NCBI RefSeq assembly: GCF_003790525.1
Contig: NZ_CP033635.1
Length of the DNA stretch: 64,000 nucleotides
DNA from: Escherichia coli
Lineage (GTDB): Bacteria; Pseudomonadota; Gammaproteobacteria; Enterobacterales; Enterobacteriaceae
Reading direction: 5' to 3' (one strand)
Part shown: positions 1 through 60,401 of the stretch, one piece after another
Layout: the number at the start of each line of letters is the position of its first letter
How positions within the stretch are numbered: position 1 is the stretch's first letter
Notes under the pieces: model-generated
The model's database searches: none
What the model saw: only the letters and a program-made list of their open reading frames with translations
What the model was told of the DNA's origin: nothing
Program-made: the position numbers and the translations under genes

Positions 1-54
1 CGGAATAGCGCCTGAAAGGCGAGGGCGGGTGAGTGACATCACCCGCCAGAGTCA

Positions 55-858: not shown

Positions 859-976
859 CGGTCTCTCTCACTGGATGTTAAAGAACGGGAAAACGGCGCA
901 GAGTATAGCAGCGAGATCGGCATCTGTCTTCGTTTTATGATAAGATGCGCGAATAATCTTTAGACGAAGAAAGACA

Positions 977-1717
977 ATGCTGCAAAATATTCGAATTGTG
1001 CTGGTGGAGACGTCACACACCGGCAATATGGGTTCTGTTGCCCGTGCCATGAAAACAATGGGATTAACCAATCTGTGGCTGGTTAATCCACTGGTGAAAC
1101 CTGACTCCCAGGCGATTGCCCTGGCAGCAGGGGCCAGCGATGTGATTGGTAATGCTCACATCGTCGATACGCTCGACGAAGCGTTGGCTGGTTGTAGCCT
1201 GGTGGTGGGCACCAGCGCACGTTCCCGCACGCTGCCGTGGCCGATGCTCGACCCGCGCGAATGCGGTCTGAAAAGCGTCGCTGAAGCGGCAAATACCCCG
1301 GTGGCGCTGGTTTTTGGTCGTGAGCGTGTTGGCTTGACCAATGAAGAGTTGCAGAAATGCCATTATCATGTCGCGATTGCCGCGAACCCGGAATACAGTT
1401 CGCTGAACCTGGCGATGGCGGTTCAGGTTATTGCCTATGAAGTGCGCATGGCCTGGCTGGCAACTCAGGAAAATGGCGAGCAGGTCGAGCATGAAGAGAC
1501 GCCGTATCCGCTGGTCGATGATCTGGAGCGTTTTTATGGTCATCTGGAGCAAACGCTGCTGGCAACCGGTTTTATCCGTGAAAACCATCCGGGGCAGGTG
1601 ATGAATAAATTGCGCCGTCTGTTTACCCGTGCACGCCCGGAAAGCCAGGAATTGAATATCCTGCGCGGGATTCTGGCTTCTATTGAGCAGCAGAATAAAG
1701 GTAACAAGGCCGAATAA
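977..1717 (+). CDS. trmJ: tRNA 2'-O-methyltransferase TrmJ
   Basis: 246-aa [32 protein letters not shown], SpoU-type methylase, upstream of iscR. Confidence 0.9.
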
Positions 1718-1725
1718 CAGTGGTT

Positions 1726-1810
1726 GCCTGATGTGATGCTTAACGCGTCTTATCAGGCTTGTAAGTGCACGGAATCCCAGGTCGGATAAGGTGTTCACAC
1801 CGCATCCGAC
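1726..1810. repeat. REP/BIME-like palindromic units downstream of trmJ
   Basis: Two imperfect palindromes (gcctgatg...cgtcttatcaggc and gtcggataagg...gcatccgac) typical of REP elements. Confidence 0.4.
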
Positions 1811-1987
1811 AACAGGTACAAACGCCACGATAAAAAAATGGCACTGAAGGTTAAATACCCGACTAAATCAGTCAAGTAAATAGTTGACCAATTTACTCGG
1901 GAATGTCAGACTTGACCCTGCTATGCAATACCCCCACTTTTACAATAAAAAACCCCGGGCAGGGGCGAGTTTGAGGTGAAGTAAGAC

Positions 1988-2476
1988 ATGAGACTGACAT
2001 CTAAAGGGCGCTATGCCGTGACCGCAATGCTTGACGTTGCGCTCAACTCTGAAGCGGGCCCGGTACCGTTGGCTGATATTTCCGAACGTCAGGGAATTTC
2101 CCTTTCTTATCTGGAACAACTGTTTTCCCGTCTGCGTAAAAATGGTCTGGTTTCCAGCGTACGTGGACCAGGCGGTGGTTATCTGTTAGGCAAAGATGCC
2201 AGCAGCATCGCCGTTGGCGAAGTGATTAGCGCCGTTGACGAATCTGTAGATGCCACCCGTTGTCAGGGTAAAGGCGGCTGCCAGGGCGGCGATAAATGCC
2301 TGACCCACGCGCTGTGGCGTGATTTGAGCGACCGTCTTACCGGTTTTCTCAATAACATTACTTTAGGCGAACTGGTTAATAACCAGGAAGTGCTGGATGT
2401 GTCTGGTCGTCAGCATACTCACGACGCGCCACGCACCCGCACACAAGACGCGATCGACGTTAAGTTACGCGCTTAA
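1988..2476 (+). CDS. iscR: Fe-S cluster regulator IscR
   Basis: 162-aa [22 protein letters not shown], Rrf2 family with C-terminal Cys cluster. Confidence 0.95.
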
Positions 2477-2587
2477 TAAAAAGAATTCAGAATCAGGCCG
2501 GAGTGCTAAACACTCCGTAAACACGGTCGTACATCCAGCCGGTAGCCTGGTTCCTTGCATTGAGTGATGTACGGAGTTTATAGAGCA

Positions 2588-3802
2588 ATGAAATTACCGA
2601 TTTATCTCGACTACTCCGCAACCACGCCGGTGGACCCGCGTGTTGCCGAGAAAATGATGCAGTTTATGACGATGGACGGAACCTTTGGTAACCCGGCCTC
2701 CCGTTCTCACCGTTTCGGCTGGCAGGCTGAAGAAGCGGTTGATATCGCCCGTAATCAGATTGCAGATCTGGTCGGCGCTGACCCGCGTGAAATCGTCTTT
2801 ACCTCTGGTGCAACCGAATCTGACAACCTGGCGATCAAAGGTGCAGCCAACTTTTATCAGAAAAAAGGCAAGCACATCATCACCAGCAAAACCGAACACA
2901 AAGCGGTACTGGATACCTGCCGTCAGCTGGAGCGCGAAGGTTTCGAAGTCACCTACCTGGCACCGCAGCGTAACGGCATTATCGACCTGAAAGAACTTGA
3001 AGCAGCGATGCGTGACGACACCATCCTCGTTTCTATCATGCACGTGAATAACGAAATCGGCGTGGTGCAGGATATCGCGGCTATCGGCGAAATGTGCCGT
3101 GCTCGCGGCATTATCTATCACGTTGATGCAACCCAGAGCGTGGGCAAACTGCCTATCGACCTGAGCCAGTTGAAAGTTGACCTGATGTCATTCTCCGGTC
3201 ACAAAATCTATGGCCCGAAAGGTATCGGTGCGCTGTATGTGCGTCGTAAACCGCGCGTACGCATCGAAGCGCAAATGCACGGTGGCGGTCACGAGCGCGG
3301 TATGCGTTCCGGCACTCTGCCTGTTCACCAGATCGTTGGTATGGGCGAAGCCTATCGCATCGCAAAAGAAGAGATGGCGACCGAGATGGAACGTCTGCGC
3401 GGCCTGCGTAACCGTCTGTGGAACGGCATCAAAGATATCGAAGAAGTTTACCTGAACGGTGACCTGGAACACGGTGCGCCGAACATTCTCAACGTCAGCT
3501 TCAACTACGTTGAAGGTGAGTCGCTGATTATGGCGCTGAAAGACCTCGCGGTTTCTTCAGGTTCCGCCTGTACGTCAGCAAGCCTCGAACCGTCCTACGT
3601 GCTGCGCGCGCTGGGGCTGAACGACGAGCTGGCACATAGCTCTATCCGTTTCTCTTTAGGTCGTTTTACTACTGAAGAAGAGATCGACTACACCATCGAG
3701 TTAGTTCGTAAATCCATCGGTCGTCTGCGTGACCTTTCTCCGCTGTGGGAAATGTACAAGCAGGGCGTGGATCTGAACAGCATCGAATGGGCACATCATT
3801 AA
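2588..3802 (+). CDS. iscS: Cysteine desulfurase IscS
   Basis: Start chosen at [16 protein letters not shown] (ATG 2588), 404 aa; ORF-track start 2564 is a 5' extension. Confidence 0.95.
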
Positions 3803-3829
3803 TCGGTATCGGAATCAGGAGAATTTATA

Positions 3830-4216
3830 ATGGCTTACAGCGAAAAAGTTATCGACCATTACGAGAATCCGCGTAACGTGGGTTCTTTTGACAACAACGA
3901 CGAGAACGTCGGCAGCGGCATGGTGGGTGCACCGGCCTGTGGCGACGTGATGAAGTTGCAGATTAAAGTCAACGATGAAGGTATCATTGAAGACGCGCGT
4001 TTTAAAACTTACGGCTGCGGTTCTGCTATCGCTTCCAGCTCCCTGGTCACCGAATGGGTGAAAGGGAAGTCTCTCGACGAAGCGCAGGCGATCAAAAACA
4101 CCGATATTGCTGAAGAACTTGAACTGCCGCCAGTGAAAATTCACTGTTCTATTCTGGCAGAAGACGCGATCAAAGCCGCCATTGCGGACTATAAAAGCAA
4201 ACGTGAAGCAAAATAA
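3830..4216 (+). CDS. iscU: Fe-S scaffold IscU
   Basis: 128-aa ORF MAYSEKVIDHYENPRNVGSF with conserved Cys. Confidence 0.95.
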   Translation: MAYSEKVIDHYENPRNVGSFDNNDENVGSGMVGAPACGDVMKLQIKVNDEGIIEDARFKTYGCGSAIASSSLVTEWVKGKSLDEAQAIKNTDIAEELELPPVKIHCSILAEDAIKAAIADYKSKREAK

Positions 4217-4232
4217 GAGTTGAGGTTTGGTT

Positions 4233-4556
4233 ATGTCGATTACACTGAGCGACAGTGCAGCAGCGCGAGTAAATACCTTTCTGGCTAACCGTGGCAAAGG
4301 GTTTGGCCTGCGTCTGGGCGTGAGAACCTCCGGATGTTCAGGTATGGCTTATGTACTGGAATTTGTTGACGAACCGACGCCGGAAGACATCGTGTTTGAA
4401 GACAAAGGCGTGAAAGTCGTGGTCGATGGCAAAAGCCTGCAATTTCTGGACGGTACGCAGCTGGACTTCGTAAAAGAAGGCCTGAACGAAGGGTTTAAAT
4501 TCACCAACCCGAACGTTAAAGATGAGTGTGGTTGCGGCGAAAGCTTCCACGTTTGA
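4233..4556 (+). CDS. iscA: Fe-S carrier IscA
   Basis: 107 aa from [13 protein letters not shown]; C-terminal CGCGESF motif. Confidence 0.93.
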
Positions 4557-4651
4557 TGCGCATACCGATAACCCCACCGTGGTCGCCTGCGCGTGGGGTT
4601 TGTTTTACCTGATTCGCCGTTATCGCGGCGGATCGCAGCCCTGAGAATGTT

Positions 4652-5167
4652 ATGGATTACTTCACCCTCTTTGGCTTGCCTGCCCGTTATCAACTCGATA
4701 CCCAGGCACTGAGCCTGCGTTTTCAGGATCTACAACGTCAGTATCATCCTGATAAATTCGCCAGCGGAAGCCAGGCGGAACAACTCGCCGCCGTACAGCA
4801 ATCTGCAACCATTAACCAGGCCTGGCAAACGCTGCGTCATCCGTTAATGCGCGCGGAATATTTACTTTCTTTGCACGGTTTTGATCTCGCCTGCGAGCAG
4901 CATACTGTGCGCGACACCGCGTTCCTGATGGAACAGCTGGAACTGCGCGAAGAACTGGACGAGATCGAACAGGCGAAAGATGAAGCGCGGCTGGAAAGCT
5001 TTATCAAACGTGTGAAAAAGATGTTTGATACCCGCCATCAGTTGATGGTTGAACAGTTAGACAACGAGACGTGGGACGCGGCGGCGGATACCGTGCGTAA
5101 GCTGCGTTTTCTCGATAAACTGCGAAGCAGTGCCGAACAACTCGAAGAAAAACTGCTCGATTTTTAA
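4652..5167 (+). CDS. hscB: Co-chaperone HscB
   Basis: 171-aa J-domain protein [16 protein letters not shown] with HPD motif. Confidence 0.93.
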
Positions 5168-5183
5168 TTTCTGGAAGCTAAAC

Positions 5184-7034
5184 ATGGCCTTATTACAAAT
5201 TAGTGAACCTGGTTTGAGTGCTGCGCCGCATCAGCGTCGTCTGGCGGCCGGTATCGACCTGGGCACAACCAACTCGCTGGTGGCGACAGTGCGCAGCGGT
5301 CAGGCCGAAACGTTAGCCGACCATGAAGGCCGTCACCTGCTGCCATCTGTTGTTCACTATCAACAGCAAGGGCATTCGGTGGGTTATGACGCGCGTACTA
5401 ATGCAGCGCTCGATACCGCCAACACCATTAGTTCTGTTAAACGTCTGATGGGGCGCTCGCTGGCTGATATCCAGCAACGCTATCCGCATCTGCCTTATCA
5501 ATTCCAGGCCAGCGAAAACGGCCTGCCGATGATTGAAACGGCGGCGGGGCTGCTGAACCCAGTGCGCGTTTCTGCGGACATCCTCAAAGCACTGGCGGCG
5601 CGGGCAACTGAAGCCCTGGCAGGCGAGCTGGATGGTGTCGTTATCACCGTTCCGGCGTACTTTGACGATGCCCAGCGTCAGGGCACCAAAGACGCGGCGC
5701 GTCTGGCGGGGTTGCATGTTCTGCGCTTACTTAACGAACCGACCGCTGCGGCTATTGCCTACGGGCTGGATTCCGGTCAGGAAGGCGTGATCGCTGTTTA
5801 TGACCTCGGCGGCGGTACGTTTGATATTTCCATTCTGCGCTTAAGTCGCGGCGTGTTTGAAGTGCTGGCAACCGGCGGTGATTCCGCGCTCGGCGGCGAT
5901 GATTTCGACCATCTGCTGGCGGATTACATTCGCGAGCAGGCGGGCATTCCTGATCGTAGCGATAACCGCGTTCAGCGTGAACTGCTGGATGCCGCCATTG
6001 CAGCCAAAATCGCGCTGAGTGATGCGGACTCCGTGACCGTTAACGTTGCGGGCTGGCAGGGCGAAATCAGCCGTGAACAATTCAATGAACTGATCGCGCC
6101 ACTGGTAAAACGAACCTTACTGGCTTGTCGTCGCGCGCTGAAAGATGCGGGCGTAGAAGCTGATGAAGTGCTGGAAGTGGTGATGGTGGGCGGTTCTACT
6201 CGCGTGCCGCTGGTGCGTGAACGGGTAGGCGAATTTTTCGGTCGTCCACCGTTGACTTCCATCGACCCGGATAAAGTCGTCGCTATTGGCGCGGCGATTC
6301 AGGCGGATATTTTGGTGGGTAACAAGCCGGACAGCGAAATGCTGCTGCTTGATGTGATCCCGCTGTCGCTGGGCCTCGAGACCATGGGCGGCCTGGTGGA
6401 GAAAGTGATCCCGCGTAATACCACGATTCCGGTAGCCCGCGCCCAGGATTTCACCACCTTTAAAGATGGTCAGACGGCGATGTCTATCCATGTAATGCAG
6501 GGTGAGCGCGAACTGGTGCAGGACTGCCGCTCGCTGGCGCGTTTTGCGCTGCGAGGTATTCCGGCGCTACCGGCTGGCGGCGCGCATATTCGCGTGACGT
6601 TCCAGGTCGATGCCGACGGTCTTTTGAGCGTGACGGCGATGGAGAAATCCACCGGCGTTGAGGCGTCTATCCAGGTCAAACCGTCTTACGGTCTGACCGA
6701 TAGCGAAATCGCTTCGATGATCAAAGACTCAATGAGCTATGCCGAGCAGGACGTAAAAGCCCGTATGCTGGCAGAACAAAAAGTAGAAGCGGCGCGTGTG
6801 CTGGAAAGTCTGCACGGCGCGCTGGCTGCTGATGCCGCGCTGTTAAGCGCCGCAGAACGTCAGGATATCGACGATGCTGCCGCTCACCTGAGTGAAGTGG
6901 CGCAGGGCGATGATGTTGACGCCATCGAACAAGCGATTAAAAACGTAGACAAACAAACCCAGGATTTCGCCGCTCGCCGCATGGACCAGTCGGTTCGTCG
7001 TGCGCTGAAAGGCCATTCCGTGGACGAGGTTTAA
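5184..7034 (+). CDS. hscA: Chaperone HscA (Hsc66)
   Basis: Start at [10 protein letters not shown] (ATG 5184), 616 aa Hsp70-like; ORF-track start 5130 is an extension. Confidence 0.93.
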
Positions 7035-7035
7035 T

Positions 7036-7371
7036 ATGCCAAAGATTGTTATTTTGCCTCATCAGGATCTCTGTCCTGATGGCGCTGTTCTGGAAGCTAA
7101 TAGCGGTGAAACCATTCTCGACGCAGCTCTGCGTAACGGTATCGAGATTGAACACGCCTGTGAAAAATCCTGTGCTTGCACCACCTGCCACTGCATCGTT
7201 CGCGAAGGTTTTGACTCGCTGCCGGAAAGCTCAGAGCAGGAAGACGACATGCTGGACAAAGCCTGGGGGCTGGAGCCGGAAAGCCGTTTAAGCTGCCAGG
7301 CGCGCGTTACCGACGAAGATTTAGTGGTCGAAATCCCGCGTTACACTATCAACCATGCGCGTGAGCATTAA
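7036..7371 (+). CDS. fdx: [2Fe-2S] ferredoxin Fdx
   Basis: 111-aa [19 protein letters not shown] with Cys ligands, follows hscA. Confidence 0.93.
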
Positions 7372-7382
7372 CAGAGGTTAGT

Positions 7383-7583
7383 ATGGGACTTAAGTGGACC
7401 GATAGCCGCGAAATTGGCGAAGCACTGTACGATGCGTATCCCGATATTGATCCGAAAATGGTTCGATTCACCGATATGCATCAGTGGATTTGCGCTCTGG
7501 AAGATTTCGACGACGACCCGCAGGCATCGAATGAGAAAATCCTCGAAGCGATTTTGTTGGTCTGGCTGGACGAAGCCGAGTGA
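7383..7583 (+). CDS. iscX: IscX (YfhJ)
   Basis: 66-aa acidic [27 protein letters not shown], last gene of isc operon. Confidence 0.9.
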
Positions 7584-7641
7584 ATGAACGGGCTGCCTGA
7601 GGGTAGCCCGTTTTGCTGTTAAACGAATAAGGATAACTAAA

Positions 7642-8925
7642 ATGACAGAAGCGATGAAAATTACCCTCTCTACCCAACCTGCCGATGCGCGCTGGGGAGA
7701 AAAAGCAACTTACAGCATTAATAATGATGGCATTACCCTGCACTTGAACGGAGCGGACGATCTGGGGCTGATCCAGCGTGCGGCGCGCAAGATTGACGGT
7801 CTGGGCATCAAACATGTTCAGCTAAGCGGTGAAGGCTGGGATGCGGATCGTTGCTGGGCATTCTGGCAAGGTTACAAAGCCCCGAAAGGCACGCGTAAAG
7901 TGGAGTGGCCGGATCTGGACGATGTCCAGCGCCAGGAACTGGATAACCGCCTGATGATCATCGACTGGGTGCGTGACACCATTAACGCACCGGCGGAAGA
8001 GCTGGGGCCATCGCAACTGGCACAGCGTGCTGTTGATCTGATCAGCAATGTCGCGGGCGATCGTGTGACTTACCGGATCACCAAAGGCGAAGATCTGCGT
8101 GATCAAGGTTATATGGGGCTGCACACGGTCGGACGCGGTTCAGAACGTTCTCCGGTATTGCTGGCGCTGGATTACAACCCGACTGGCGATAAAGAAGCGC
8201 CAGTGTACGCGTGCCTGGTAGGTAAAGGTATCACTTTTGACTCCGGCGGCTACAGCATCAAACAGACCGCATTTATGGACTCGATGAAGTCGGACATGGG
8301 CGGCGCGGCAACGGTTACCGGGGCGCTGGCGTTTGCCATTACGCGCGGACTGAACAAGCGCGTGAAGCTGTTCCTCTGCTGTGCGGATAACCTGATCAGC
8401 GGCAACGCGTTCAAACTGGGCGATATTATTACCTATCGCAACGGTAAAAAAGTTGAAGTGATGAACACTGATGCGGAAGGGCGTCTGGTGCTGGCCGATG
8501 GCCTGATTGATGCCAGTGCGCAGAAACCGGAACTGATCATTGATGCGGCGACCCTCACCGGGGCGGCGAAAACTGCGCTGGGTAATGATTATCACGCGCT
8601 GTTCAGTTTTGACGATGCGCTTGCCGGTCGCTTGCTGGCGAGTGCCGCGCAGGAGAATGAACCGTTCTGGCGTCTGCCGCTGGCGGAGTTCCACCGCAGC
8701 CAGCTGCCGTCTAACTTTGCCGAACTGAACAATACCGGAAGCGCGGCGTACCCGGCAGGCGCGAGCACGGCGGCGGGCTTCCTGTCGCACTTTGTTGAGA
8801 ACTATCAGCAAGGCTGGCTGCATATCGACTGCTCGGCGACTTACCGTAAAGCGCCGGTTGAACAGTGGTCTGCGGGTGCTACGGGACTTGGTGTGCGCAC
8901 GATTGCTAATCTGTTAACGGCGTAA
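7642..8925 (+). CDS. pepB: Aminopeptidase B PepB
   Basis: 427-aa [25 protein letters not shown]17 peptidase family. Confidence 0.92.
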
Positions 8926-8931
8926 ACTAAT

Positions 8932-9045
8932 ATGCCGGATGCGGCGTAAACGCCTTATCCGGACTACAAATTGCGAAAATCCAATAGATTGCGACTCCCT
9001 TGTAGGCCTGATAAGCGTGGCGCATCAGGCACTTGTGCCCCGAAC
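8932..9045. repeat. REP/BIME element between pepB and sseB
   Basis: Canonical REP palindromes gccggatgcggcgtaaacgccttatccgg and inverted copy aggcctgataagcgtggcgcatcaggc. Confidence 0.55.
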
Positions 9046-9066
9046 GTTGAATGAATTGTGGTTCTT

Positions 9067-9843
9067 ATGTCCGAAACAAAAAATGAACTTGAAGACCTGC
9101 TGGAAAAAGCAGCAACCGAACCGGCGCACCGCCCGGCCTTTTTCCGTACTCTACTGGAATCCACCGTCTGGGTGCCGGGTACGGCGGCGCAGGGCGAGGC
9201 TGTGGTTGAAGATAGCGCGCTTGATTTACAGCACTGGGAAAAAGAAGACGGCACCAGCGTCATTCCTTTTTTTACCTCGTTAGAAGCACTTCAACAGGCG
9301 GTTGAAGACGAACAGGCATTTGTCGTAATGCCCGTTCGCACATTGTTTGAGATGACCCTTGGCGAAACGCTCTTCCTTAATGCCAAACTGCCAACCGGTA
9401 AAGAATTTATGCCGCGTGAAATCAGTTTGTTGATTGGTGAAGAAGGAAATCCGCTGAGCAGCCAGGAAGTACTGGAGGGCGGTGAATCGCTGATATTATC
9501 GGAAGTCGCAGAGCCACCAGCACAAATGATTGATTCTCTCACCACCTTATTTAAAACTATTAAGCCGGTGAAGCGTGCTTTTATTTGTTCAATTAAAGAG
9601 AACGAAGAGGCACAGCCTAATTTACTTATTGGCATTGAAGCCGATGGTGATATCGAAGAAATTATTCAGGCGGCGGGAAGTGTAGCGACCGATACAATAC
9701 CTGGCGATGAACCCATCGATATTTGTCAGGTGAAAAAAGGGGAAAAAGGAATTAGCCACTTTATTACCGAACATATTGTGCCATTCTATGAACGTCGCTG
9801 GGGTGGTTTTTTGCGTGACTTTAAACAGAACCGGATAATCTAA
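9067..9843 (+). CDS. sseB: SseB, enhancer of serine sensitivity
   Basis: 258 aa from MSETKNELEDLLEKAATEP; convergent with sseA. Confidence 0.85.
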   Translation: MSETKNELEDLLEKAATEPAHRPAFFRTLLESTVWVPGTAAQGEAVVEDSALDLQHWEKEDGTSVIPFFTSLEALQQAVEDEQAFVVMPVRTLFEMTLGETLFLNAKLPTGKEFMPREISLLIGEEGNPLSSQEVLEGGESLILSEVAEPPAQMIDSLTTLFKTIKPVKRAFICSIKENEEAQPNLLIGIEADGDIEEIIQAAGSVATDTIPGDEPIDICQVKKGEKGISHFITEHIVPFYERRWGGFLRDFKQNRII

Positions 9844-9945
9844 AATATGCCGCCCCAAAGGGCGGCATTCGGGCTTACCTGCTGTTCTGAAGGTTGTTAA
9901 CCACCAATAAATTGTTACCGGAGAGACTCCGGTTATTATTTACCT

Positions 9946-10325
9946 CGGTTAACAGCGCACCAGAAACAATAAGTACGATACAAAAGCACCGTATCTTCAT
10001 TGTGCGGTCCATGCGAAGACCGCATCACGACAGCACCACTGGCGATATTGCCGCGATAGCAAGCGCTGTGAAACACCTGCATTTACGGCCATGGAACATC
10101 CTTTCCTTAAGCCAGCGCCCGTTTGCGAGACGGCGGAAAGGGCCGGTGTCGATAATACGCTAAATAAACAATGATTACTCTCTTTCGCTTGACAAAAAGA
10201 GAGTTACTGGCGAGTATTGCTTTGCTGTGAAGCACCTGCGTTGCTCATGCAACACAAGCCAATCTGCTGGAAAGGCCGCGAACCAGACCAGCAATAAAAA
10301 ACCGCCAAATTCGGCGGTTTTTTAT
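9946..10325 (+). ncRNA. Candidate RyfA-like sRNA in the sseB-sseA intergenic region (strand and ends uncertain)
   Basis: About 500 bp non-coding gap between convergent genes; promoter-like TTGTTA-16-TATTAT at 9911-9938; strong hairpin plus T-run at 10300-10330; RyfA is known to lie between sseA and sseB in E. coli. Confidence 0.25.
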
Positions 10326-44571: not shown

Positions 44572-45822
44572 GTGCTTACCGATACAAAATTAAAGAACCT
44601 CAAGCCACAGGACAAACTGTACAAAGTTTCCGATCGTGACGGGCTGTATGTAGCTGTGCTTACGTCAGGTACGGTCTCGTTTCGCTATGACTACCGTATC
44701 AACGGTCGCCGCGAAACACTGGTAATCGGGCAGTATGGGCGTGACGGTATCAGCCTGGCAGAAGCGCGAGAAGAACTGATTGCTGCAAAGAAGCTGCTTA
44801 AAGCAGGCCAGTCGCCGGCTGCGGCTAAACGTGACGGTATCAAAAAGATTCGTGGTGCCGAGACGTTTGCGGTACATACCGACAGTTATATGAAACACGT
44901 CATCCTGGCTGAAAGTACCCGCGCAATGAAGCAGGCAGTGATCGACCGTGACATACTTCCTGTTCTTGGCAACAAAATGATGACTGAAATTACCACATCG
45001 ATGGTTCGTGATTTGTGTGACCGGATTGTCGAACGCGGTGGTCGGGCAACAGCAGTACAGGCCAGGGAGATCATTAGCAGCGTATACCGTCACGCCAATG
45101 ACCGTGGTCATGGTTTGTTTAATCCTGCGGCTGACATTAAACCTTCGTCTATCGCCATATTTAAACCACGAGAGCGAACACTGACACCAGAAGAAATTGG
45201 TCTGTTCTTCCGCACGCTGGATGCCATTGGTGCTATGGGCACTATGAAAATGGCTTTAAAGCTGGTGCTTATCACTATGGTTCGTAAAGGCGAATTCACC
45301 AATGCAACGTGGGACGAAATAGATTTTAAAAAATGGACATGGACAATTCCTTCAGACCGCATGAAGGGAAGCCGGGCGCACGTTATTTACCTGCCAAAAC
45401 AGGCACAGGATATATTGGTTGGGTTGCAGATGTGCGCTGGTGGAAGTGAATATCTGGTTCCTGGTCGTTACAATTTCCGGAAGCCATTATCTAATGCCGC
45501 ACTGAACTCTCTGATCGACAGAACGGTGAAAATAATAAATGAAGATGGTGAGCATATTCAGGGCTTCACCGTACACGATATGCGCCGTACAGCCAGTACG
45601 TTGTTGCATGAGGCTGGTTATCCTTCAGACTGGATTGAAAAGGCTCTGGCACATGAGCAGAAAGGTGTGCGCGCCGTATATAACAAAGCGGAATACGCCA
45701 GACAGCGCGCCTACATGTTGCAGCAGTGGGCCGATATGATTGATTCCTGGATTAACGGGGAGCATACGGATCTAATTCCGTTCTCCCCGTCGAAGTTTGA
45801 GAAGTGGATGGCGGGGGAATAA
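44572..45822 (+). CDS. Tyrosine-type phage integrase (P4-like family)
   Basis: 416-aa ORF MLTDTKLKNLKPQDKLYKVSDRDGLYVAV..., C-terminal HDMRRTASTLL and catalytic-region motifs; GTG start. Confidence 0.85.
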   Translation: MLTDTKLKNLKPQDKLYKVSDRDGLYVAVLTSGTVSFRYDYRINGRRETLVIGQYGRDGISLAEAREELIAAKKLLKAGQSPAAAKRDGIKKIRGAETFAVHTDSYMKHVILAESTRAMKQAVIDRDILPVLGNKMMTEITTSMVRDLCDRIVERGGRATAVQAREIISSVYRHANDRGHGLFNPAADIKPSSIAIFKPRERTLTPEEIGLFFRTLDAIGAMGTMKMALKLVLITMVRKGEFTNATWDEIDFKKWTWTIPSDRMKGSRAHVIYLPKQAQDILVGLQMCAGGSEYLVPGRYNFRKPLSNAALNSLIDRTVKIINEDGEHIQGFTVHDMRRTASTLLHEAGYPSDWIEKALAHEQKGVRAVYNKAEYARQRAYMLQQWADMIDSWINGEHTDLIPFSPSKFEKWMAGE

Positions 45823-49670: not shown

Positions 49671-50255
49671 TTATTGTTTGTTTTTTTCGTTCTGGTTGAT
49701 GACAAATTCAATGTAACTTTCGATCTTTGCTTTCTCGGTTTCGGGTAACAATGCGTAGCGCGAGCGATCATAGTTGATGGTCGCAGGGTCATGCGGATGA
49801 ATCAGTAGTTCATATCCGTGACGCCCGAATGCAGATGCAACATTCTCCAGGGTGGAAATGGAAACGCTGACCTCATTGTTTAACAGGCGGCTTATTGTCA
49901 CCTGGGCGACGCCGGATGCGCGGTGAAGTTTTCCCTGAGTTGAAAGGTCGCGGCTTTCACTCATCCAGCGTTCCAGGTTGTGAGCCGCCAGCTGACCTAT
50001 ATCACTCGGGCCGACAGGCTGAAAACCCTCCTGAGAAAGCGAGCGATCAATATCAAGCCAGTTACGGGGTTTATTGGCGGCAGCTTCAATTTTTCGCGCA
50101 ACCTGGTCGCCGATAACCTTCTTGCCAAGAGCCCAGCGGTTTACCAGATTTGCCTGAGTTCCAAGTTTTTCTGCCATCCGCGTCTGAACACCATTGAATT
50201 CACGGTCGATCAAGTCGTTGAGATTTTGCCTGCGGACGTCCTGGATACTTTTCAT
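49671..50255 (-). CDS. Prophage repressor (two HTH regions)
   Basis: 194-aa ORF divergent from cro-like gene; HTH-like segments QTRMAEKLGTQANLVNRWALGKK and ASGVAQVTISRLLNNE. Confidence 0.55.
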   Translation of the reverse strand: MKSIQDVRRQNLNDLIDREFNGVQTRMAEKLGTQANLVNRWALGKKVIGDQVARKIEAAANKPRNWLDIDRSLSQEGFQPVGPSDIGQLAAHNLERWMSESRDLSTQGKLHRASGVAQVTISRLLNNEVSVSISTLENVASAFGRHGYELLIHPHDPATINYDRSRYALLPETEKAKIESYIEFVINQNEKNKQ

Positions 50256-50788: not shown

Positions 50789-51001
50789 TTGAAGATAGTA
50801 ACCAGAATGGAGGCCGCAAAAGCCGGGTTAAATCGCTATTTCACAGGAAAGCGGTGCCGTCACGGCCATCTCTCTGAAAGGTATGTTCTGAACGGAACAT
50901 GTGTTGAATGTGCAATGAATAGCGCCAACCGCCATCGTAATGAATTTGCTTGTGCACTAAAGAGTGCAAGAGGGGAAACCTATGGCAAGCAGCTGGATTA
51001 A
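50789..51001 (+). CDS. Small zinc-ribbon-like protein
   Basis: 70-aa ORF with C-x-H-G-H ... C-x2-C; TTG start in track, true start uncertain. Confidence 0.35.
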   Translation: MKIVTRMEAAKAGLNRYFTGKRCRHGHLSERYVLNGTCVECAMNSANRHRNEFACALKSARGETYGKQLD

Positions 51002-51812
51002 GGTTGAAGTTATCACTCCTGATAAACCTGAAATTTTTCAGATAGCAGAAATTCTGGGTATTGATCCAGATGCTGTTCTTGGAAAGCTGGTTCGTATATG
51101 GGCATGGGCTGACCAGCAAACAATAGACGGTAACGCTGGCAGCGTTACAAAAGGAGTACTTGATAGACTCGCTTTTATTACAGGATTTGCTGACGCCCTC
51201 ATTAGCGTCGGATGGCTTGCTTATCATGACGGCAAACTAATTCTTCCAAACTTTGAGCGACACAATGGAGAATCATCGAAAAAACGTGCACTTACGAATA
51301 GAAGAGTGGCAGAGCATCGAAAACGAGTAACGCAAAAAGTAACGCCAACAGCGTTACAAAAGGAGTTACCAGAGGAAGAGGAAGAGGAAGATATATATAA
51401 AACCCCACACATAGCGCACGTGCGCGAGGGGGCTACGACCAGTGAAGCGAACGGTATGCCGTTGCAGGTGGCTGAACCTGAATTTCTGGATGGCCTGAGT
51501 GAACCCATCGGGAAATTTCCGATGACCGATGACTGGCATCCGTCGCCGGATTTTCGACGGCGTGCTGCGCTGTGGGGAACGGCCCTGCCGGAACCGGAAT
51601 TTACACCTGCTGAACTTGCTGCATTCCGGGATTACTGGATGGCTGAGGGCAAAGTGTTCACGCAGGTTCAGTGGGAACAAAAATTCGCCAGGCACGTAAA
51701 TCATATCAGGGGAAAATCAAAAAACGCCGGGAAAAGCGATGAGCTTGACTGGAATAACACTGACTGGATAGAAGGGGTGTGGGATGAAATCAACTCCAGA
51801 ACTTCTCAATGA
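50982..51812 (+). CDS. Replication initiation protein (O-like)
   Basis: Start MASSWIKVEV after GAGGGG RBS; acidic EEEEEED linker; overlaps start of P-like gene. Confidence 0.45.
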   Translation: MASSWIKVEVITPDKPEIFQIAEILGIDPDAVLGKLVRIWAWADQQTIDGNAGSVTKGVLDRLAFITGFADALISVGWLAYHDGKLILPNFERHNGESSKKRALTNRRVAEHRKRVTQKVTPTALQKELPEEEEEEDIYKTPHIAHVREGATTSEANGMPLQVAEPEFLDGLSEPIGKFPMTDDWHPSPDFRRRAALWGTALPEPEFTPAELAAFRDYWMAEGKVFTQVQWEQKFARHVNHIRGKSKNAGKSDELDWNNTDWIEGVWDEINSRTSQ

Positions 51813-52560
51813 GTACGATCGCTTACGTGAGCATGGTGTTGCTGTGCATGAAGAGCGGCGTGACAGCAATGGCAAAAAGGAGCAGGTCGCTAGAATTTTC
51901 AATGAACTATTTGTCCAGTTACAGGCTGCATTTCCCGCAAGCGTTTCGACCATAAGGGAGCAGAACAAACTTAATGAATTCCGTAAGCAATGGATGCTTG
52001 CGTTTCTGGAGAATGGGATCACAACAATGGAACAGGTTAACGCTGGTATGCGCCACGCCCGCGCCAGTGAGTCTCCGTTCTGGCCGTCGCCAGGGCAATT
52101 TATCAAGTGGTGTAAAGACAGCAAGATGGTTCTTGGCGTCACCATTGACGATGTGATGGCGGAGTTTCACCGGTACAGCAAGGAAAAAAGTTTATATCCT
52201 GGTGGTCCCGAAAGATTCCCGTGGCGGCATCCGGTTATGTACTGGGTCGTATGTGATACCCGCCGTGCAATGTATCAGCGCCAGCTTAGCGAGATTGAAG
52301 TTGAGAAACACGCGCGCAGGCTGCTCGATGATTGGGCGAAAAAGGTGGCTTCCGGGCAGCAGATACCCGATCCGGTGATCAGCATACAGGCAAAGCCAGA
52401 ACCCATGAGTACGCCTCCGGACACAGGGAGAGACGTTTACCACCCGCCAGGGCGAAGTTTCGGGTGCATGCCTAACGCCGCCACCCTTGGGGGAATAACA
52501 CCGGCTCAGTGGCTGATGGAGGAATACAGGCGGGGAAAGGCGGCAGGATTTATCAAGTAA
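51784..52560 (+). CDS. Replication protein P-like (DnaB helicase loader)
   Basis: 258-aa ORF with ENGITTMEQVNAGMRHAR and PSPGQF, matching lambda P as recalled. Confidence 0.75.
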   Translation: MKSTPELLNEYDRLREHGVAVHEERRDSNGKKEQVARIFNELFVQLQAAFPASVSTIREQNKLNEFRKQWMLAFLENGITTMEQVNAGMRHARASESPFWPSPGQFIKWCKDSKMVLGVTIDDVMAEFHRYSKEKSLYPGGPERFPWRHPVMYWVVCDTRRAMYQRQLSEIEVEKHARRLLDDWAKKVASGQQIPDPVISIQAKPEPMSTPPDTGRDVYHPPGRSFGCMPNAATLGGITPAQWLMEEYRRGKAAGFIK

Positions 52561-55875: not shown

Positions 55876-56159
55876 TGGTCTCCTTCGCGAAATATACGAT
55901 TATTGACTGGATAGCATTCATTCAGGTTTTGCTCATCTGGTTTTATATGGCTTACAGGAGTGGACAGTGGATTGTCAGTGTAGCCTGTAGCAATGGATGG
56001 CGTTGGTGGAACCGAAAGAATAAAAAAGCGCTGGCCTTGGCTTCGTTTTACGAAGCATTCAATCTTAACAGTCTTCAGCCTGGTTCTGTCGTTGTAGTCA
56101 CCACTCAAAGCGGCATGACGATACAAATTCACAAGCCAAAGGAGGAAGGTCGTGGCTAA
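55872..56159 (+). CDS. Hypothetical small membrane protein
   Basis: 95-aa ORF with hydrophobic N-terminal segment. Confidence 0.3.
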   Translation: MMVSFAKYTIIDWIAFIQVLLIWFYMAYRSGQWIVSVACSNGWRWWNRKNKKALALASFYEAFNLNSLQPGSVVVVTTQSGMTIQIHKPKEEGRG

Positions 56160-56433
56160 CCTGCAACTTGCCGTTAAAGGTGAATACTTCGATGCCATGA
56201 TTCGCGGGGAGAAAACGGAAGAGTATCGCCTGTGTAATGACTACTGGAATAAGCGAATTATGTTCCGCGAGTATGACCGCCTGATTATCACAAAGGGATA
56301 TCCGAAGCGCGACGATTCCAGCCGCAGAATTGACGTCCCGTATGACGGATATGAAATCAAGACAATCACACATCCGCACTTCGGCGATAAACCGGTAAAG
56401 GTGTTCGCTATAAAGGTGAATATTGATGGCTAA
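56152..56433 (+). CDS. ASCH-domain-like protein
   Basis: 93-aa ORF MANLQLAVKGEYFDAMIRGEKTEEYR. Confidence 0.4.
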   Translation: MANLQLAVKGEYFDAMIRGEKTEEYRLCNDYWNKRIMFREYDRLIITKGYPKRDDSSRRIDVPYDGYEIKTITHPHFGDKPVKVFAIKVNIDG

Positions 56434-56764
56434 ATCAGCAGCAGAGCGCAAAGCCGCGCAGCGCGCTCGGCAGTCCGCCGCCGGTGAGCGCAAAATTGAA
56501 CTGGTGCTGGATAAGCAGGAGCAGGAAATGCTGGCGCGGAACTGCGCCGCCCGGCGCCCTGGTCACGATCCCTATGAAATGGCCGAGTACATCGCGCTGC
56601 TGATCCGCCAGGATGATGCACGTGTGCGCGGGCGTATAAAATCGATCAGTAGAAAACGTTGCGGTAAGTGCGGCGAGAGAGTTCCAGTTAATTCATGTCC
56701 GTGTAATGGTGACTCGCAATGCTGGGTGACTAAAGGCTGGCATGAAACGAAATTAATAGTGTGA
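56423..56764 (+). CDS. Cys-rich hypothetical protein upstream of terminase
   Basis: 113-aa ORF with basic N-terminus and C-terminal CGKCG...CPCNGDSQC. Confidence 0.4.
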   Translation: MMAKSAAERKAAQRARQSAAGERKIELVLDKQEQEMLARNCAARRPGHDPYEMAEYIALLIRQDDARVRGRIKSISRKRCGKCGERVPVNSCPCNGDSQCWVTKGWHETKLIV

Positions 56765-56882
56765 CATGTCACGAGTAGATTATGCATGATGAATTTGATG
56801 GGTTTTGAATACTGCCGCCAACTATGGCGGCTTTATTTTGCATGGTACTATTACCACAACGGTAACTATTACCACGGTGGTT

Positions 56883-57479
56883 ATGATGCCTGCTGAACCT
56901 AAAACCTATAAACGCAAATCAACGCAATTTAAGCCGCTCACAGCAATGCAGGAGGCTTATTGCCAGTCATACATCAAAACGCCTGAAAACCAGACTCAGG
57001 CAGCGATTAACGCAGGATTCTCCCCAAATACAGCGGCAGTTAAAGCCAGTGTCATGATGCGCGATGAACGCATTCAAAAACGGATTGCCGAGTTGATGGA
57101 GGAGCGCAACAAACGAATGCGCGTCAGTGCTGATTACGTTCTCATGCGCCTGGTGGAGATCGACCAGATGGACGTGATCGATATCCTCAACGACGATGGG
57201 AGCCTTAAACCAATCCGTGAGTGGCCGAAAATCTGGCGCACTACGCTTAGTGGCTTTGATCTGTCATCGACCATCATGAACATGAACGAGGATTCGATAG
57301 AGACAATCCTCAAAAAAATTAAATGGCCTGACAAGGTGAAGAACCTCGAACTGATTGGTAAGCACGTCGACGTTAACGCGTTCAAAGAACGTCTGGATGT
57401 TAATGTGAATGTGACAATTGCTGATCGCATAGCAGCAGCCAGGAAGCGACTCAAAGAACGTCAGGATGGTAATCAGTGA
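56883..57479 (+). CDS. Terminase small subunit
   Basis: Positioned immediately before terL with GTGA stop/start overlap; start inferred at MMPAEPKTYKRK. Confidence 0.5.
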   Translation: MMPAEPKTYKRKSTQFKPLTAMQEAYCQSYIKTPENQTQAAINAGFSPNTAAVKASVMMRDERIQKRIAELMEERNKRMRVSADYVLMRLVEIDQMDVIDILNDDGSLKPIREWPKIWRTTLSGFDLSSTIMNMNEDSIETILKKIKWPDKVKNLELIGKHVDVNAFKERLDVNVNVTIADRIAAARKRLKERQDGNQ

Positions 57480-58950
57480 CAGATACAGCGTTATCTCCTG
57501 AAGAGCAGTTGATCGAGGATATTGCAGGGTTCACTCACGATCCGCTTGGCTATGCCCTCTATGCGTTCCCGTGGGGGAAGAGGGTACTGAACTGGCACAT
57601 GCCACCGGCCCACGTCAGTGGCAGGCTGATGCGTTCCGAGAGATACGTGATCACCTGCAGAATCCAGAGACGCGCTATCAGCCGCTTATGCTGGCACGCG
57701 CTTCTGGTCACGGTATTGGTAAATCCGCATTCATCTCAATGCTGATCAACTGGGGCATGTCCACTTGCGAGGATTGTAAGGTCGTGGTGACCGCCAACAC
57801 CGACAACCAGCTACGAACTAAGACCTGGCCGGAAATTATCAAGTGGTCGAACCTTGCTATCACGAAAGACTGGTTTACCTGTACCGCTACCGCGATGTAC
57901 AGCAATGATCCTGGGCACGACAAGCGGTGGCGAGCTGACGCAATCCCTTGGTCTGAGCACAACACTGAGGCATTCGCCGGACTACACAACGAGCGTAAAC
58001 GCATCATCGTGGTATTTGATGAAGCGTCGAACATTGCGGATCTGGTGTGGGAAGTTGCCGAGGGTGCGCTAACGGACGAAGACACTGAGATTATCTGGGT
58101 GGCGTTCGGAAACCCTACACGTAACACCGGACGTTTCCGCGAATGTTTCCGCAAATATAAACACCGCTGGAAAACTGCGCAGATTGACAGCCGAACGGTG
58201 GAAGGCACTAACAAACAGCAGTTGCAGAAATGGGTTGATGACTACGGGGAAGACAGCGACTTCGTTAAAATCCGTGTGCGCGGCATATTCCCTGATGCAT
58301 CTGAATTGCAGTTTATCCCTACCGGTCTTACTGATGAGGCAATGAAACGGGTGGTGACCGCTGCGCAGGTGGCGCATGCTCCGGTGATAATCGGTGTTGA
58401 CCCGGCATATTCAGGCGTTGATGACGCGGTGATATACCTGCGGCAGGGGCTACACAGTAAGGTGCTGTGGACTGGCAACAAGACTACCGACGATCTGATT
58501 ATGGCGAAGCGTATCGCTGACTTTGAAGACCAGTATCAGGCTGACGCGGTGTTCATCGACTTCGGTTACGGAACCGGTTTGAAGTCAATCGGTGATGGCT
58601 GGGGACGTACATGGCAACTTGTTCCGTTCGGTGGCGCGTCTACTGACCCGCAGATGCTCAACAAGCGTGGGGAGATGTTCAACTCATGCAAGACATGGCT
58701 GAGGCTCGGCGGCATGCTGGATGACCAGGAAACTGCAGACGACCTGTCGGCGGCAGAGTACAAAGTTCGTGTGGACGGTAAAATCGTTATCGAACCGAAG
58801 GAAGATATCAAAGAGCGGCTTGGGCGTTCGCCTGGTAAAGGCGATGCGCTACTGCTGACGTTTGCTTTCCCGGTGTCAAAGCGCCTGCGACTTCCCGGGC
58901 AGCAGAACCAGCAAGGCAAGGCGCTTACCGAGTACGATCCATATGCTTAG
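57476..58950 (+). CDS. Terminase large subunit, apparently frameshifted in a G5 run (57573-57577)
   Basis: Coupled GTG start 57476 gives 32 codons in one frame; Walker-A (GHGIGKS) body continues in another frame from 57571; adding one G restores a single ORF. Confidence 0.7.
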
Positions 58951-59765
58951 TCTTTATTTTTATCCTCGAAACCTGATAATCCAGATAGAACACCAAAGTT
59001 ATTAAAAACGTTTGGCTTACCAGATTTTAATCCGGATAAGTTGTGTTGCTCCAAAAAGTTACTAATTGTTTGGCCGTTGCCAAGTGCAAGGCTTTTTATT
59101 TGAGATTTTTCAGGGTATTTGAGTTTGTATTCGTCGAAATCATTTTGGAGGGTCTTATATGCCTCATTCATTCTTCCAAGAGTTTCCGATATCTCTTTTA
59201 ATGAATGATTTAGAGCTGCTAACTGAGCACTGGCGGATCTCAATTCGTCATCTTTAGCTTTCAACTCGGCAGTCAATTCACCCATACTATTCTTTGATCG
59301 AATAATCTCTTCTTTCATCTCTTGGATGTCTTTTTCCGCGCCAGTCTTAACTTTGTCGTATGTAACATCTTTTTTAGCCAATAACCTCTGCAGTCTTGTT
59401 TCACGCTGGATTTTTCTTGCCTTCAGGTGATTTTCGATTGAGTCATTATTATCAAGAGGCTTTGCTTGCCATACGTTAATGATATTGTTTACCCATGGTA
59501 ATAGGCAGCAGATAGCAATTACAGATAAGCATGGATAAAACATAACAGTTTTCCATGTGCTGTTATCTGAGATATATGAAATTTTATCTATTATGTTTGA
59601 TTTGCTAAAAAATAGATAAAGAATTGATTTCCAGTTGAAGGCGCACCAGGACATAACAAAAGCACCAAGCACAGGGTTTTTGGCTCGATTCACGGCAGTA
59701 TTGGCAGTAGATAAAAACAGCTCTTTGAACGATTCAAACATGCTAATTACCTTGAAGTTTTTCAT
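58947..59765 (-). CDS. AT-rich moron: membrane protein with coiled-coil C-terminal region
   Basis: Start inferred at MKNFKVISMF; two hydrophobic segments then Lys/Glu-rich heptad-like region; opposite strand to structural genes. Confidence 0.55.
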   Translation of the reverse strand: MKNFKVISMFESFKELFLSTANTAVNRAKNPVLGAFVMSWCAFNWKSILYLFFSKSNIIDKISYISDNSTWKTVMFYPCLSVIAICCLLPWVNNIINVWQAKPLDNNDSIENHLKARKIQRETRLQRLLAKKDVTYDKVKTGAEKDIQEMKEEIIRSKNSMGELTAELKAKDDELRSASAQLAALNHSLKEISETLGRMNEAYKTLQNDFDEYKLKYPEKSQIKSLALGNGQTISNFLEQHNLSGLKSGKPNVFNNFGVLSGLSGFEDKNKD

Positions 59766-59769
59766 GATT

Positions 59770-59784
59770 ATACCTTTAAGGTAA
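59770..59784. promoter_or_regulatory. Operator-like palindrome next to moron start, overlapping a TATAAT element
   Basis: On moron strand reads TTACCttaaaGGTATAATcATG. Confidence 0.4.
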
Positions 59785-59801
59785 TTTGCGGTCATCAAGC
59801 A

Positions 59802-59825
59802 AAAAAATGCCCGGCGAACCGGGCG
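59802..59825 (-). terminator. Intrinsic terminator downstream of phage tRNA
   Basis: Minus strand gcccgg-ttcg-ccgggc followed by attttttt. Confidence 0.5.
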
Positions 59826-59987
59826 AACTGGAAGCAATGAGTTATGCCTTCCGTGGCTGTACGGGTTTACAGCATGAAGTCATCGCAATGGCGTCCTGCT
59901 GTAAAAAGGGCGGTGATAGTCCTTCAAGGGAAACCATCACCGCCAAGCCCCTGGAACTTCTGGCATCACGGTCCTTAGGCGTGATTC

Positions 59988-60064
59988 TGGCGCGGCATGC
60001 AGGATTCGAACCTGCGACCAACCGCTTAGAAGGCGGTTGCTCTGTCCAACTGAGCTAATGCCAC
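59988..60064 (-). tRNA. tRNA-Arg (anticodon UCU), phage-encoded
   Basis: 77-nt cloverleaf folded by hand: acceptor GTGGCAT/ATGCCGC, anticodon loop CTTCTAA, T-loop GCAGG-TTCGAAT-CCTGC, encoded CCA. Confidence 0.85.
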
Positions 60065-60386: not shown

Positions 60387-60401
60387 TTACCTGAAAGGTA
60401 A
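60387..60401. promoter_or_regulatory. Operator-like palindrome TTACCtgaaaGGTAA upstream of head genes
   Basis: Perfect motif family member, followed by TAATAAT. Confidence 0.4.

Follow-up and report, generated by a model that had tools for sequence, protein, structure and literature searches.

A predicted ribbon-helix-helix protein and a palindrome at the end of its gene at the early/late boundary of an epsilon15/phiV10-like prophage of Escherichia coli

Introduction

How do phages of the epsilon15/phiV10 type activate their late genes? We know of no description of this step. The question is raised here by a prophage in the chromosome of Escherichia coli (contig NZ_CP033635.1 of assembly GCF_003790525.1), from which a stretch of 64,000 nucleotides, hereafter called the window, was analyzed. 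A first-pass annotation had pointed to a small basic, cysteine-rich protein encoded directly before the terminase genes, where a late regulator would be expected, and had suggested a zinc-finger activator in the manner of the Ogr and Delta proteins. We call the gene X and describe it together with Pal, a 12-bp palindrome over its stop codon. The best-supported reading is that X is a site-specific DNA-binding protein of the ribbon-helix-helix (RHH) type with a zinc module, and that the end of its gene, at the early/late boundary, contains the site. The analysis shows the gene, its conservation, a fold prediction, the linkage of gene and site and the positions of the sites; the binding of X to the site and its effect on transcription are inferred.

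Gene X and its family

The open reading frame (ORF) reported at 56423-56764 on the plus strand exists and has conserved homologues, with a refined start. The TTG at 56423 is almost certainly an artefact of mechanical ORF calling and the true start is the ATG at 56426, because the homologues are 112 aa long and the RefSeq gene in strain LS45 measures 339 nt (LS45 is identical over the 701-nt stretch compared, 56300-57000, and its RefSeq annotation was used). Gene X (56426..56764, plus strand) thus encodes 112 aa and is the last gene of the early-right operon, an assignment based on the ORF, a PHROG 536 match, homologues and structure models. Its start overlaps the stop codon of the upstream ASCH-domain gene (56152..56433, plus strand), the final gene of a P22-like nin segment. 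Up to 56423 this segment is 99.8% identical to the P22-like phage CUS-3 and 97.7% to ST104 in megablast searches; these matches stop at query position 524, and matches to Uetakevirus phages (the epsilon15/phiV10 group: PAS61, TL-2011b, phiV10, ZX5) start at 527 or 528. The alignments place a mosaic joint at 56423-56426, the start codon of X, with Uetakevirus similarity from 56426-56427 onward, and X is therefore assigned to the epsilon15-type late module. The location claimed for X, directly before the terminase genes at the early/late junction, is thereby borne out.

X matches PHROG 536 over nearly its full length (E=1.2e-53, residues 1-111 on profile positions 2-114 of 115). This family is uncharacterised and carries the label "transcriptional regulator"; no match was obtained in Pfam, NCBIfam or PADLOC. 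We found 775 homologues of X in a large protein database, forming a family of modest size with 150 representative clusters at 50% identity, which indicates that the gene is under selection. Carriers of PHROG 536 include N15, phiKO2, ZF40, P2-like Yersinia phages and many Vibrio phages, and both N15 gp46 and a distant Vibrio-type homologue also match the profile. The named hosts of phages with X all belong to Escherichia, Salmonella, Klebsiella, Enterobacter, Citrobacter, Yersinia, Pectobacterium, Vibrio or Aeromonas. In all contexts examined, X is the final early gene, usually directly before lysis or packaging genes, and PHROG and Pfam scans recognize it as the sole regulator-type protein downstream of cro in the window.

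All statements on residue conservation refer to an alignment of 55 diverse homologues. The basic N-terminus (MAKSAAERKAAQRARQ) and the C-terminal cluster CGKCG...CPCNGDSQC are present as first described. The N-terminus is Arg-rich throughout the family (R8 and R13 in at least 90%) and is followed by a beta-alpha-alpha core and the C-terminal pattern C-x-K-C-G-x2-L-P...C...G-D-x2-C, in which the cysteines are spaced CX2C-X8-10-C-X5-7-C; C79 and C82 are invariant and C99 is nearly so.

Predicted structure of X

An AlphaFold2 model of X, made with the 55-member alignment, has a pLDDT of 89 and contains helices at residues 5-18, 30-42, 52-74 and 100-107. When two copies joined by a linker were modeled in tandem, the beta-strands at residues 22-28 of both copies paired as in RHH dimers, and RHH proteins were the top matches in both fold searches. 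The models thus contain the features of the RHH (Arc/MetJ/CopG) superfamily, namely a beta-alpha-alpha core and dimerization via an antiparallel beta-ribbon. X is accordingly predicted to be an RHH protein whose N-terminal helix is rich in Arg and whose C-terminus forms a Cys4 (zinc) module; its RHH part, and not the Cys cluster, would contact DNA. We conclude that X very probably binds DNA. The predicted dimeric beta-ribbon fold is that of the regulators omega of pSM19035, Arc and Mnt of P22, CopG and ParG, from which X differs in its extra conserved Arg-rich helix, its zinc module and the location of its proposed sites at gene 3' ends instead of promoters.

The Cys module recalls DksA/TraR proteins, with the pattern C-x2-C-G-x2-(L/I)-P...G(D)..C following a long helix. 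The resemblance is weak: TraR and YbiI are the top PDB profile matches at E=0.044-0.051, hhalign gives 46% against TraR, the DksA/TraR zinc finger (PF01258) has no Pfam match in the X family, and of its CxxC-N17-CxxC finger the second CxxC is absent.

A palindrome linked to gene X

Pal (GTGACATGTCAC, 56761..56772) covers the TGA stop codon of X and is proposed as its cognate site. Its consensus is GTGAC-NN-GTCAC, which occurs once in the 64-kb window (0.04 expected). The linkage of this palindrome to X is a new result. Of 80 close IMG/VR loci, 78 have Pal at the stop codon of X, as do TL-2011b, PAS61, PAT1, ST512phi13.3, BUCT554 and Chlobot. It also lies at or near the stop codon of distant homologues (N15 gp46, ZF40 gp22, Yersinia phage vB_YenM_201.16, metagenomic relatives with ~30% identity). 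Among 81 distinct X variants, a sample that partly contains loci found via the palindrome itself, 57 have an exact Pal at most 45 nt from the stop codon, 53 of them in the same register (G-TGA-C). The reverse search, in which viral contigs were scanned with the extended palindrome TTGTGACNNGTCACAA alone, returned 120 contigs, and an X-family ORF was present in 47. Phages with X often have more than one Pal: N15 (0.01 expected), PAS61 (0 expected) and Vibrio phage K308 each have three in all, which in N15 and PAS61 is far above chance.

The spacer of Pal is strictly 2 nt: 184 sites have this length, whereas a 3-nt spacer occurred once and spacers of 1 or 4 nt did not occur. From Vibrio to E. 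coli phages, the half-sites show neither variation nor covariation, while the central dinucleotide is free. Such fixed half-sites without covariation fit base-specific recognition of double-stranded DNA by a dimer rather than an RNA hairpin. Alternatively, Pal may be seen as a pair of inverted heptads (TGTGACA, TGTCACA) that resemble the heptads recognized by omega. Together, we consider it likely that X binds Pal.

Other explanations of Pal were tried and rejected. An RNA hairpin bound by the Arg-rich helix would have a stem of only 4-5 bp, shows no covariation and has a free central dinucleotide. A pac or cos function was considered since Pal adjoins terS both here and in Vibrio phages of the HNH-terS type, but other copies lie far from terS, and Pal is unrelated to cos in N15 and P2-like phages. 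Finally, Pal is not the SopB centromere of N15, as the inverted repeat near the N15 late promoter has a different sequence (GCGACC-AT-GGTCGC).

One sub-lineage of X (IMG/VR loci L132, L171, L205 and L173) carries a different inverted repeat past the stop codon, GGTRC-TGATAGT-GYACC, and has a standard Pal ~540 nt further downstream, past one intervening gene.

Pal and the ends of operons

The early-right operon of the window is closed by an intrinsic terminator at 56814..56839 on the plus strand (GCCGCC-AACTAT-GGCGGC, then TTTATTTT; terminator scan and RNA fold), 41 nt past Pal. The hairpin is kept in relatives at 22-41 nt from Pal. PAS61 and LS45 have three copies of Pal at the 3' ends of three rightward units (X, terL and tail-internal genes), each 0-41 nt from an intrinsic terminator, and the terminator stems vary while Pal is fixed. 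In relatives, the extra copies at the terS-terL and tail operon ends lie 0-7 nt from intrinsic terminators. At the terL end, for instance, the stem differs among relatives and Pal stays constantly 4 nt away, and most of the different reverse-strand morons found there stop ~4 nt from the other side of Pal. Pal is located exactly where conserved sequence turns into variable morons.

N15 has Pal at the ends of its leftward repA operon and its rightward early operon, and one copy within repA. Its three identical sites (CGTGACTGGTCACG; locus L227, positions 28550, 33237 and 39269) are found at the gp46 stop, within repA, and in the interval that separates gene 33 from the terminator upstream of the antirepressor operon. 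Besides repA of N15, locus L100 has an intragenic Pal. Vibrio-type phages have one Pal in the stretch from X to the late promoter and a second one ~11-19 nt ahead of the start codon of terS.

A promoter-like match at 56761-56790 was considered together with the terminator as a PR'- or 6S-like unit and rejected, as it is weak (9/12) and not conserved in PAT1-type relatives. Several relatives carry a promoter with a LexA box (CTGT-N8-ACAG) directly downstream of X and Pal, driving an inserted gene: BUCT554 (L011, 2782-2850), ST512phi13.3 (L012) and a Yersinia phage (L006, ~5480). The inserted gene of BUCT554 encodes a 109-aa protein that is UmuD/S24-like only by the look of its sequence, and the Yersinia phage has small tum-like genes.

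X beside Q and Ogr-type late regulators

Lambdoid Q proteins (lambda Q, Q82, Q21 and N15 gp40) share with X a small size, a basic, DNA-binding character and a position as last early gene before the late genes; moreover, Q genes are also directly followed by a DNA site and then a terminator. X differs in showing no homology to Q (Pfam and PHROG 304 negative). Q sites moreover lie within or beside a strong late promoter with a sigma-dependent pause element, and no such promoter separates Pal from the terminator in the window. The Ogr and Delta proteins of P2 and P4 are likewise small phage proteins with four cysteines and, as X, candidates for late control, but they differ from X in fold, Cys spacing and target site. 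Ogr_Delta (PF04606) matches neither X nor any of the 55 homologues, whose Cys spacing departs from the CX2C-X22-CX4C arrangement of these ~72-80-aa proteins. The target site of Ogr is TGT-N12-ACA. The search for zinc-finger activator families that the first-pass annotation had suggested yielded none for X or the 55 homologues. Its Ogr/Delta assignment is hence not upheld: a Pfam match is lacking, the RHH is predicted as the DNA-binding part, and members of the X family coexist with Q in one phage and with a gene at the ogr position in another. X is neither an Ogr/Delta-type nor a Q-type late regulator.

The late region of Vibrio-type and N15-like phages resembles lambda PR', with a strong sigma-70 promoter, a -10-like CAACGTGGTG, a terminator and a holin gene. 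The CAACGTGGTG element is conserved at the transcript start, in the initial transcribed region. Such PR'-like regions were located in L223 (7467-7600), L224 (7433-7560), L015 (33330-33515), L099 (8600-8670) and L101 (11030-11200), and ACCACAAAA repeats stand beside the -35 of these late promoters. In Vibrio-type phages, where a pause-like element accompanies the promoter and terminator, Pal and the late promoter are separated by a variable distance (-95 to -650; 55-600 nt upstream of the -35 hexamer). At the position that Q occupies in N15, after cro, these phages encode a conserved protein of ~140 aa (PHROG 7047), which is a candidate for a new family of Q-like antiterminators. A role of X as the Q analogue of Vibrio-type phages was rejected, since PHROG 7047 holds the N15-Q position and Pal is too far from the late promoter.

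Operator motif and late promoters

A late-promoter motif common to the upstream regions of terS and the small gene 60481 had been anticipated. Such a motif is indeed present (TTACC-N5-GGTAA, hereafter Op), but the same motif also occurs at PL, PR, the int promoter region, a moron promoter and ant. When no more than two mismatches to a pattern somewhat longer than Op are allowed, the window contains 24 matches versus 1.4 expected, and nearly all promoter regions of the prophage are marked by Op. The positions are 44515 (upstream of int), 49537 and 49599 (PL), 50311 and 50359 (PR/PRM), 50696 (past the cro terminator), 52598 and 52660 (before nin genes), 56851 and 56869 (before terS), 59770 (moron promoter) and 60387 (before 60481 and the portal operon). 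Relatives also have Op before the tailspike gene and around the antirepressor gene (ant).

The two copies directly upstream of the terS start (56851..56883; 56851-56865 exact, 56869-56883 with one mismatch) are the presumed operator and weak promoter serving the terS-terL operon. This pair is kept in PAT1, ST512phi13.3 and BUCT554 and in 45 of the 47 loci long enough to scan. The copy at 60387..60401 (TTACCTGAAAGGTAA) lies ~80 nt upstream of gene 60481 and the portal operon. An AATAAT -10-like hexamer overlaps with the right half of this copy, and its position is conserved in relatives. In several places the right half of Op doubles as a Shine-Dalgarno or -10 element.

Op is kept at its places even where the CI repressor is only ~41% identical, and it is absent from every non-Uetakevirus phage type with X. 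Op is probably the immunity (CI/Cro) operator of Uetakevirus-type phages; as a target of X it was rejected because of this absence, so that of the motif anticipated before terS and 60481 the presence stands and the link to X does not. Most simply, every late operon would possess an Op-controlled promoter of its own, in which the -10 is good and the -35 poor. This design of dispersed operators, comparable to that of P1, makes a Q-like switch less needed. The recombinant L064 (IMGVR_UViG_3300045988_095680, 1-10000) has an entirely different early/immunity region without Op and keeps X, Pal and the Op copies before terS and the portal operon, which is hard to square with Op being the CI operator only.

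Organization of the prophage

The prophage is inserted at the 3' end of guaA in the chromosome of E. coli and is epsilon15/phiV10-like (Uetakevirus), its late module being placed in this group by megablast. It encodes an integrase (44572-45822), a 194-aa helix-turn-helix repressor (49671-50255, minus strand), cro (50410) and O/P-like genes (50964-52560), which are followed by a nin-like region, terS, terL, a T7-type portal gene and head genes. Directly after the cro terminator and its Op site, a 70-aa Cys-rich protein (50789-51001; CRHGH...CVEC, PHROG 1081) is encoded, possibly another regulator.

The terS gene (56883..57479, plus strand; Terminase_2, PF03592, E=1.4e-29; annotated with 594 nt in TL-2011b) probably starts at ATG 56883 or 56886, with the mechanical ORF beginning at TTG 56805. 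The terL gene is out of frame in the window, with 1475 nt (57476-58950) versus 1476 nt in relatives: a G6 run at ~57573 has lost one G, leaving ORFs 57476-57745 and 57571-58950. Either the prophage is defective or the frameshift is a homopolymer sequencing error. A minus-strand moron (58947-60064) separates terL from the portal operon; it encodes, under its own promoter, a coiled-coil protein of 264-296 aa (PHROG 4780; SMC-like PADLOC matches are weak) and contains a tRNA-Arg(TCT) at 59988-60064, the sole match in an Rfam scan of 49-64 kb. At least eight different cargo genes occupy this spot among relatives.

The first-pass annotation had further noted that no Q-like or lysis gene lies between the P-like gene and terS, and had expected the lysis genes beyond the window. 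Both observations are confirmed. PHROG and Pfam scans recognized no antiterminator, holin or endolysin among the ORFs from cro to terS, in agreement with the RefSeq annotation of the identical region. In LS45 and in strain 20AR0300, the closest overall relative of the window prophage (98% identical), a lysis cassette with two holins, a GH19 endolysin and a DUF2514 protein is located at the right prophage end past the tailspike gene, and nothing Q-like is annotated in the examined late regions of these two strains.

Discussion

We tentatively favor the reading that X is a site-specific regulator of transcription-unit boundaries with Pal as its cognate site. X would be made as the final product of the early-right operon, and its dimer would bind Pal between the end of this operon and the terminator at 56814-56839, directly before the terS operon. 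In relatives, X would also bind the extra copies of Pal beside the terminators that close the terS-terL and tail operons. RNA polymerase coming from one operon would thereby get past the adjacent terminator or not, under the control of X. The favored direction is that read-through into the late genes is promoted; alternatively, X may act as a roadblock or insulator. The late operons' own Op-marked promoters are probably silenced in the lysogen by the immunity repressor. As the late operons have these promoters, X would be at most a modulator and not the sole late switch.

Several observations weigh against such a boundary regulator. N15 encodes Q (gp40, PHROG 304) together with the X homologue gp46 (PHROG 536), and the P2-like Yersinia phage vB_YenM_201.16 encodes the X homologue gp13 together with a 72-aa regulator, gp51, which follows gpD at the ogr position and is called Ogr-like by position; given this coexistence, X cannot simply be the sole late switch. 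The closest relative of the window prophage has a single Pal, at the X stop codon, and can therefore dispense with additional copies beside terminators. N15, Chlobot and some Vibrio phages have Pal directly upstream of the Shine-Dalgarno sequence of the next gene, with no terminator. The terminator and the terS promoter lie at no fixed distance from Pal (22 nt or 41 nt, or with a gene inserted in between), and a distant homologue (L226) has no Pal within 14 kb. At the protein level, the residues of the predicted beta-strand are poorly conserved though the Pal half-site is invariant, and the conserved basic residues R8 and R13 sit in the N-terminal helix. Finally, we found no literature on the X family or the Pal site.

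An architectural instead of a transcriptional role is the main rival, though rather unlikely: X and Pal may form a phage analogue of MatP/matS. MatP is the Ter-macrodomain protein of E. coli, and its site matS has the consensus GTGAC(A/G)N(T/C)GTCAC (PMC3116907), with a 13-bp form GTGACAGTGTCAC (PMC7394560); MatP bound to matS unloads MukBEF (PMC8669397). The Pal half-sites match all 10 specified bases of matS (PMC3116907, PMC7394560). MatP/matS (PDB 3VEA, 4D8J) and X/Pal have in common an RHH core (predicted for X) after a basic helix, identical half-sites and few, dispersed sites. Pal occurs in 1-4 copies at varying positions, some of them intragenic (N15 repA, L100), and the coexistence of X with Q and an Ogr-like gene poses no problem for an architectural protein. 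The hosts of phages with X (Enterobacterales, Vibrio, Aeromonas) coincide with the clade that has MatP and MukBEF. A MatP-like X would mark phage DNA, compete at host matS sites, exclude or unload MukBEF, bridge DNA, or disturb Ter organization or division. Sequence homology, however, is lacking (no match to the MatP profiles PF06303 and PF17414 in the 55 members; hhalign probability of 0.2% against E. coli MatP), and the spacer is strictly 2 nt in Pal versus 3 nt in matS (1 site with the matS spacing versus 184). MatP moreover has a four-helix bundle, a coiled coil and a ZapB-binding tail. The 112-aa X model has no room for a bundle or coiled coil, and X has a Cys4 module instead, is phage-encoded and has its site over its own stop codon. 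The tight link of Pal to stop codons and terminators also suggests transcription. We found no paper describing a phage counterpart of MatP/matS. In a specific form that we likewise regard as rather unlikely, X would read matS-type half-sites at a spacing shifted by 1 bp, and temperate phages of the gamma-proteobacteria with MatP and MukBEF would carry it to keep the SMC complex MukBEF off their DNA, to organize or bridge this DNA, or to disturb host Ter and division control. X could also mark the evolutionary origin of the DNA-binding core of MatP in mobile elements.

It is improbable that X limits its own synthesis by binding Pal and stalling RNA polymerase in the 3' end of its own gene, thereby also stopping read-through from the early operon late in infection. 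The stop codon does lie inside the left half-site, in the same register in the 53 variants mentioned above, and many phages have a single Pal, at the end of X. An intrinsic terminator is, however, already present downstream, and extra copies of Pal would be useless for autoregulation. We know of no phage precedent for such an autogenous roadblock.

Similarly doubtful is the proposal that a host protein such as MatP or a SlmA-like factor occupies Pal, or that Pal represents a recombination junction for module exchange, with X acting elsewhere, e.g., on RNA polymerase via a zinc finger in the manner of TraR/DksA. It draws on the weak TraR and YbiI matches (E ~0.05; hhalign 46% for TraR), on the position of Pal exactly at the boundary between conserved sequence and variable morons, and on SlmA sites, which are also 12 bp long and have their outer 4 bp in common with Pal. 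The TraR similarity is nonetheless below significance with its second CxxC not conserved, the spacer survey recovered no matS-spaced or SlmA-type variants, and direct binding is the best explanation for a linkage of gene and site in such different phages.

The original proposal of an Ogr/Delta-type activator that sits upstream of late promoters and recruits RNA polymerase is very improbable: it accounts for the position of X directly upstream of terS, the lack of another candidate in the prophage and the Cys4 cluster, and late promoters with an apparently good -10 and poor -35 make an activator plausible, but X has no Ogr_Delta match and a different Cys spacing, Pal lies at ~-108 from the predicted terS start and at ~-1000 and ~-370 from the next operons in relatives, the closest relative has no Pal before its portal and tailspike operons, Op as the element common to the late promoters does not travel with X, and one P2-like phage has both X and a gene at the ogr position.

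Turning back to the boundary regulator that we favor and to what the locus means for these phages, the identity of the matS half-sites and the RHH fold leave room for a possible phage link to MatP/MukBEF, which, if true, would be a new kind of phage-host interaction. PHROG 536 is widespread and has been labelled a transcriptional regulator without a known site, and the conserved pair of gene and site now makes the family testable. For the epsilon15/phiV10-type phages, which include O157 typing and reporter phages and many prophages of E. coli, Salmonella and Klebsiella, the outcome is a late control region with two cis-elements, Op and Pal, and one candidate trans-factor, X.

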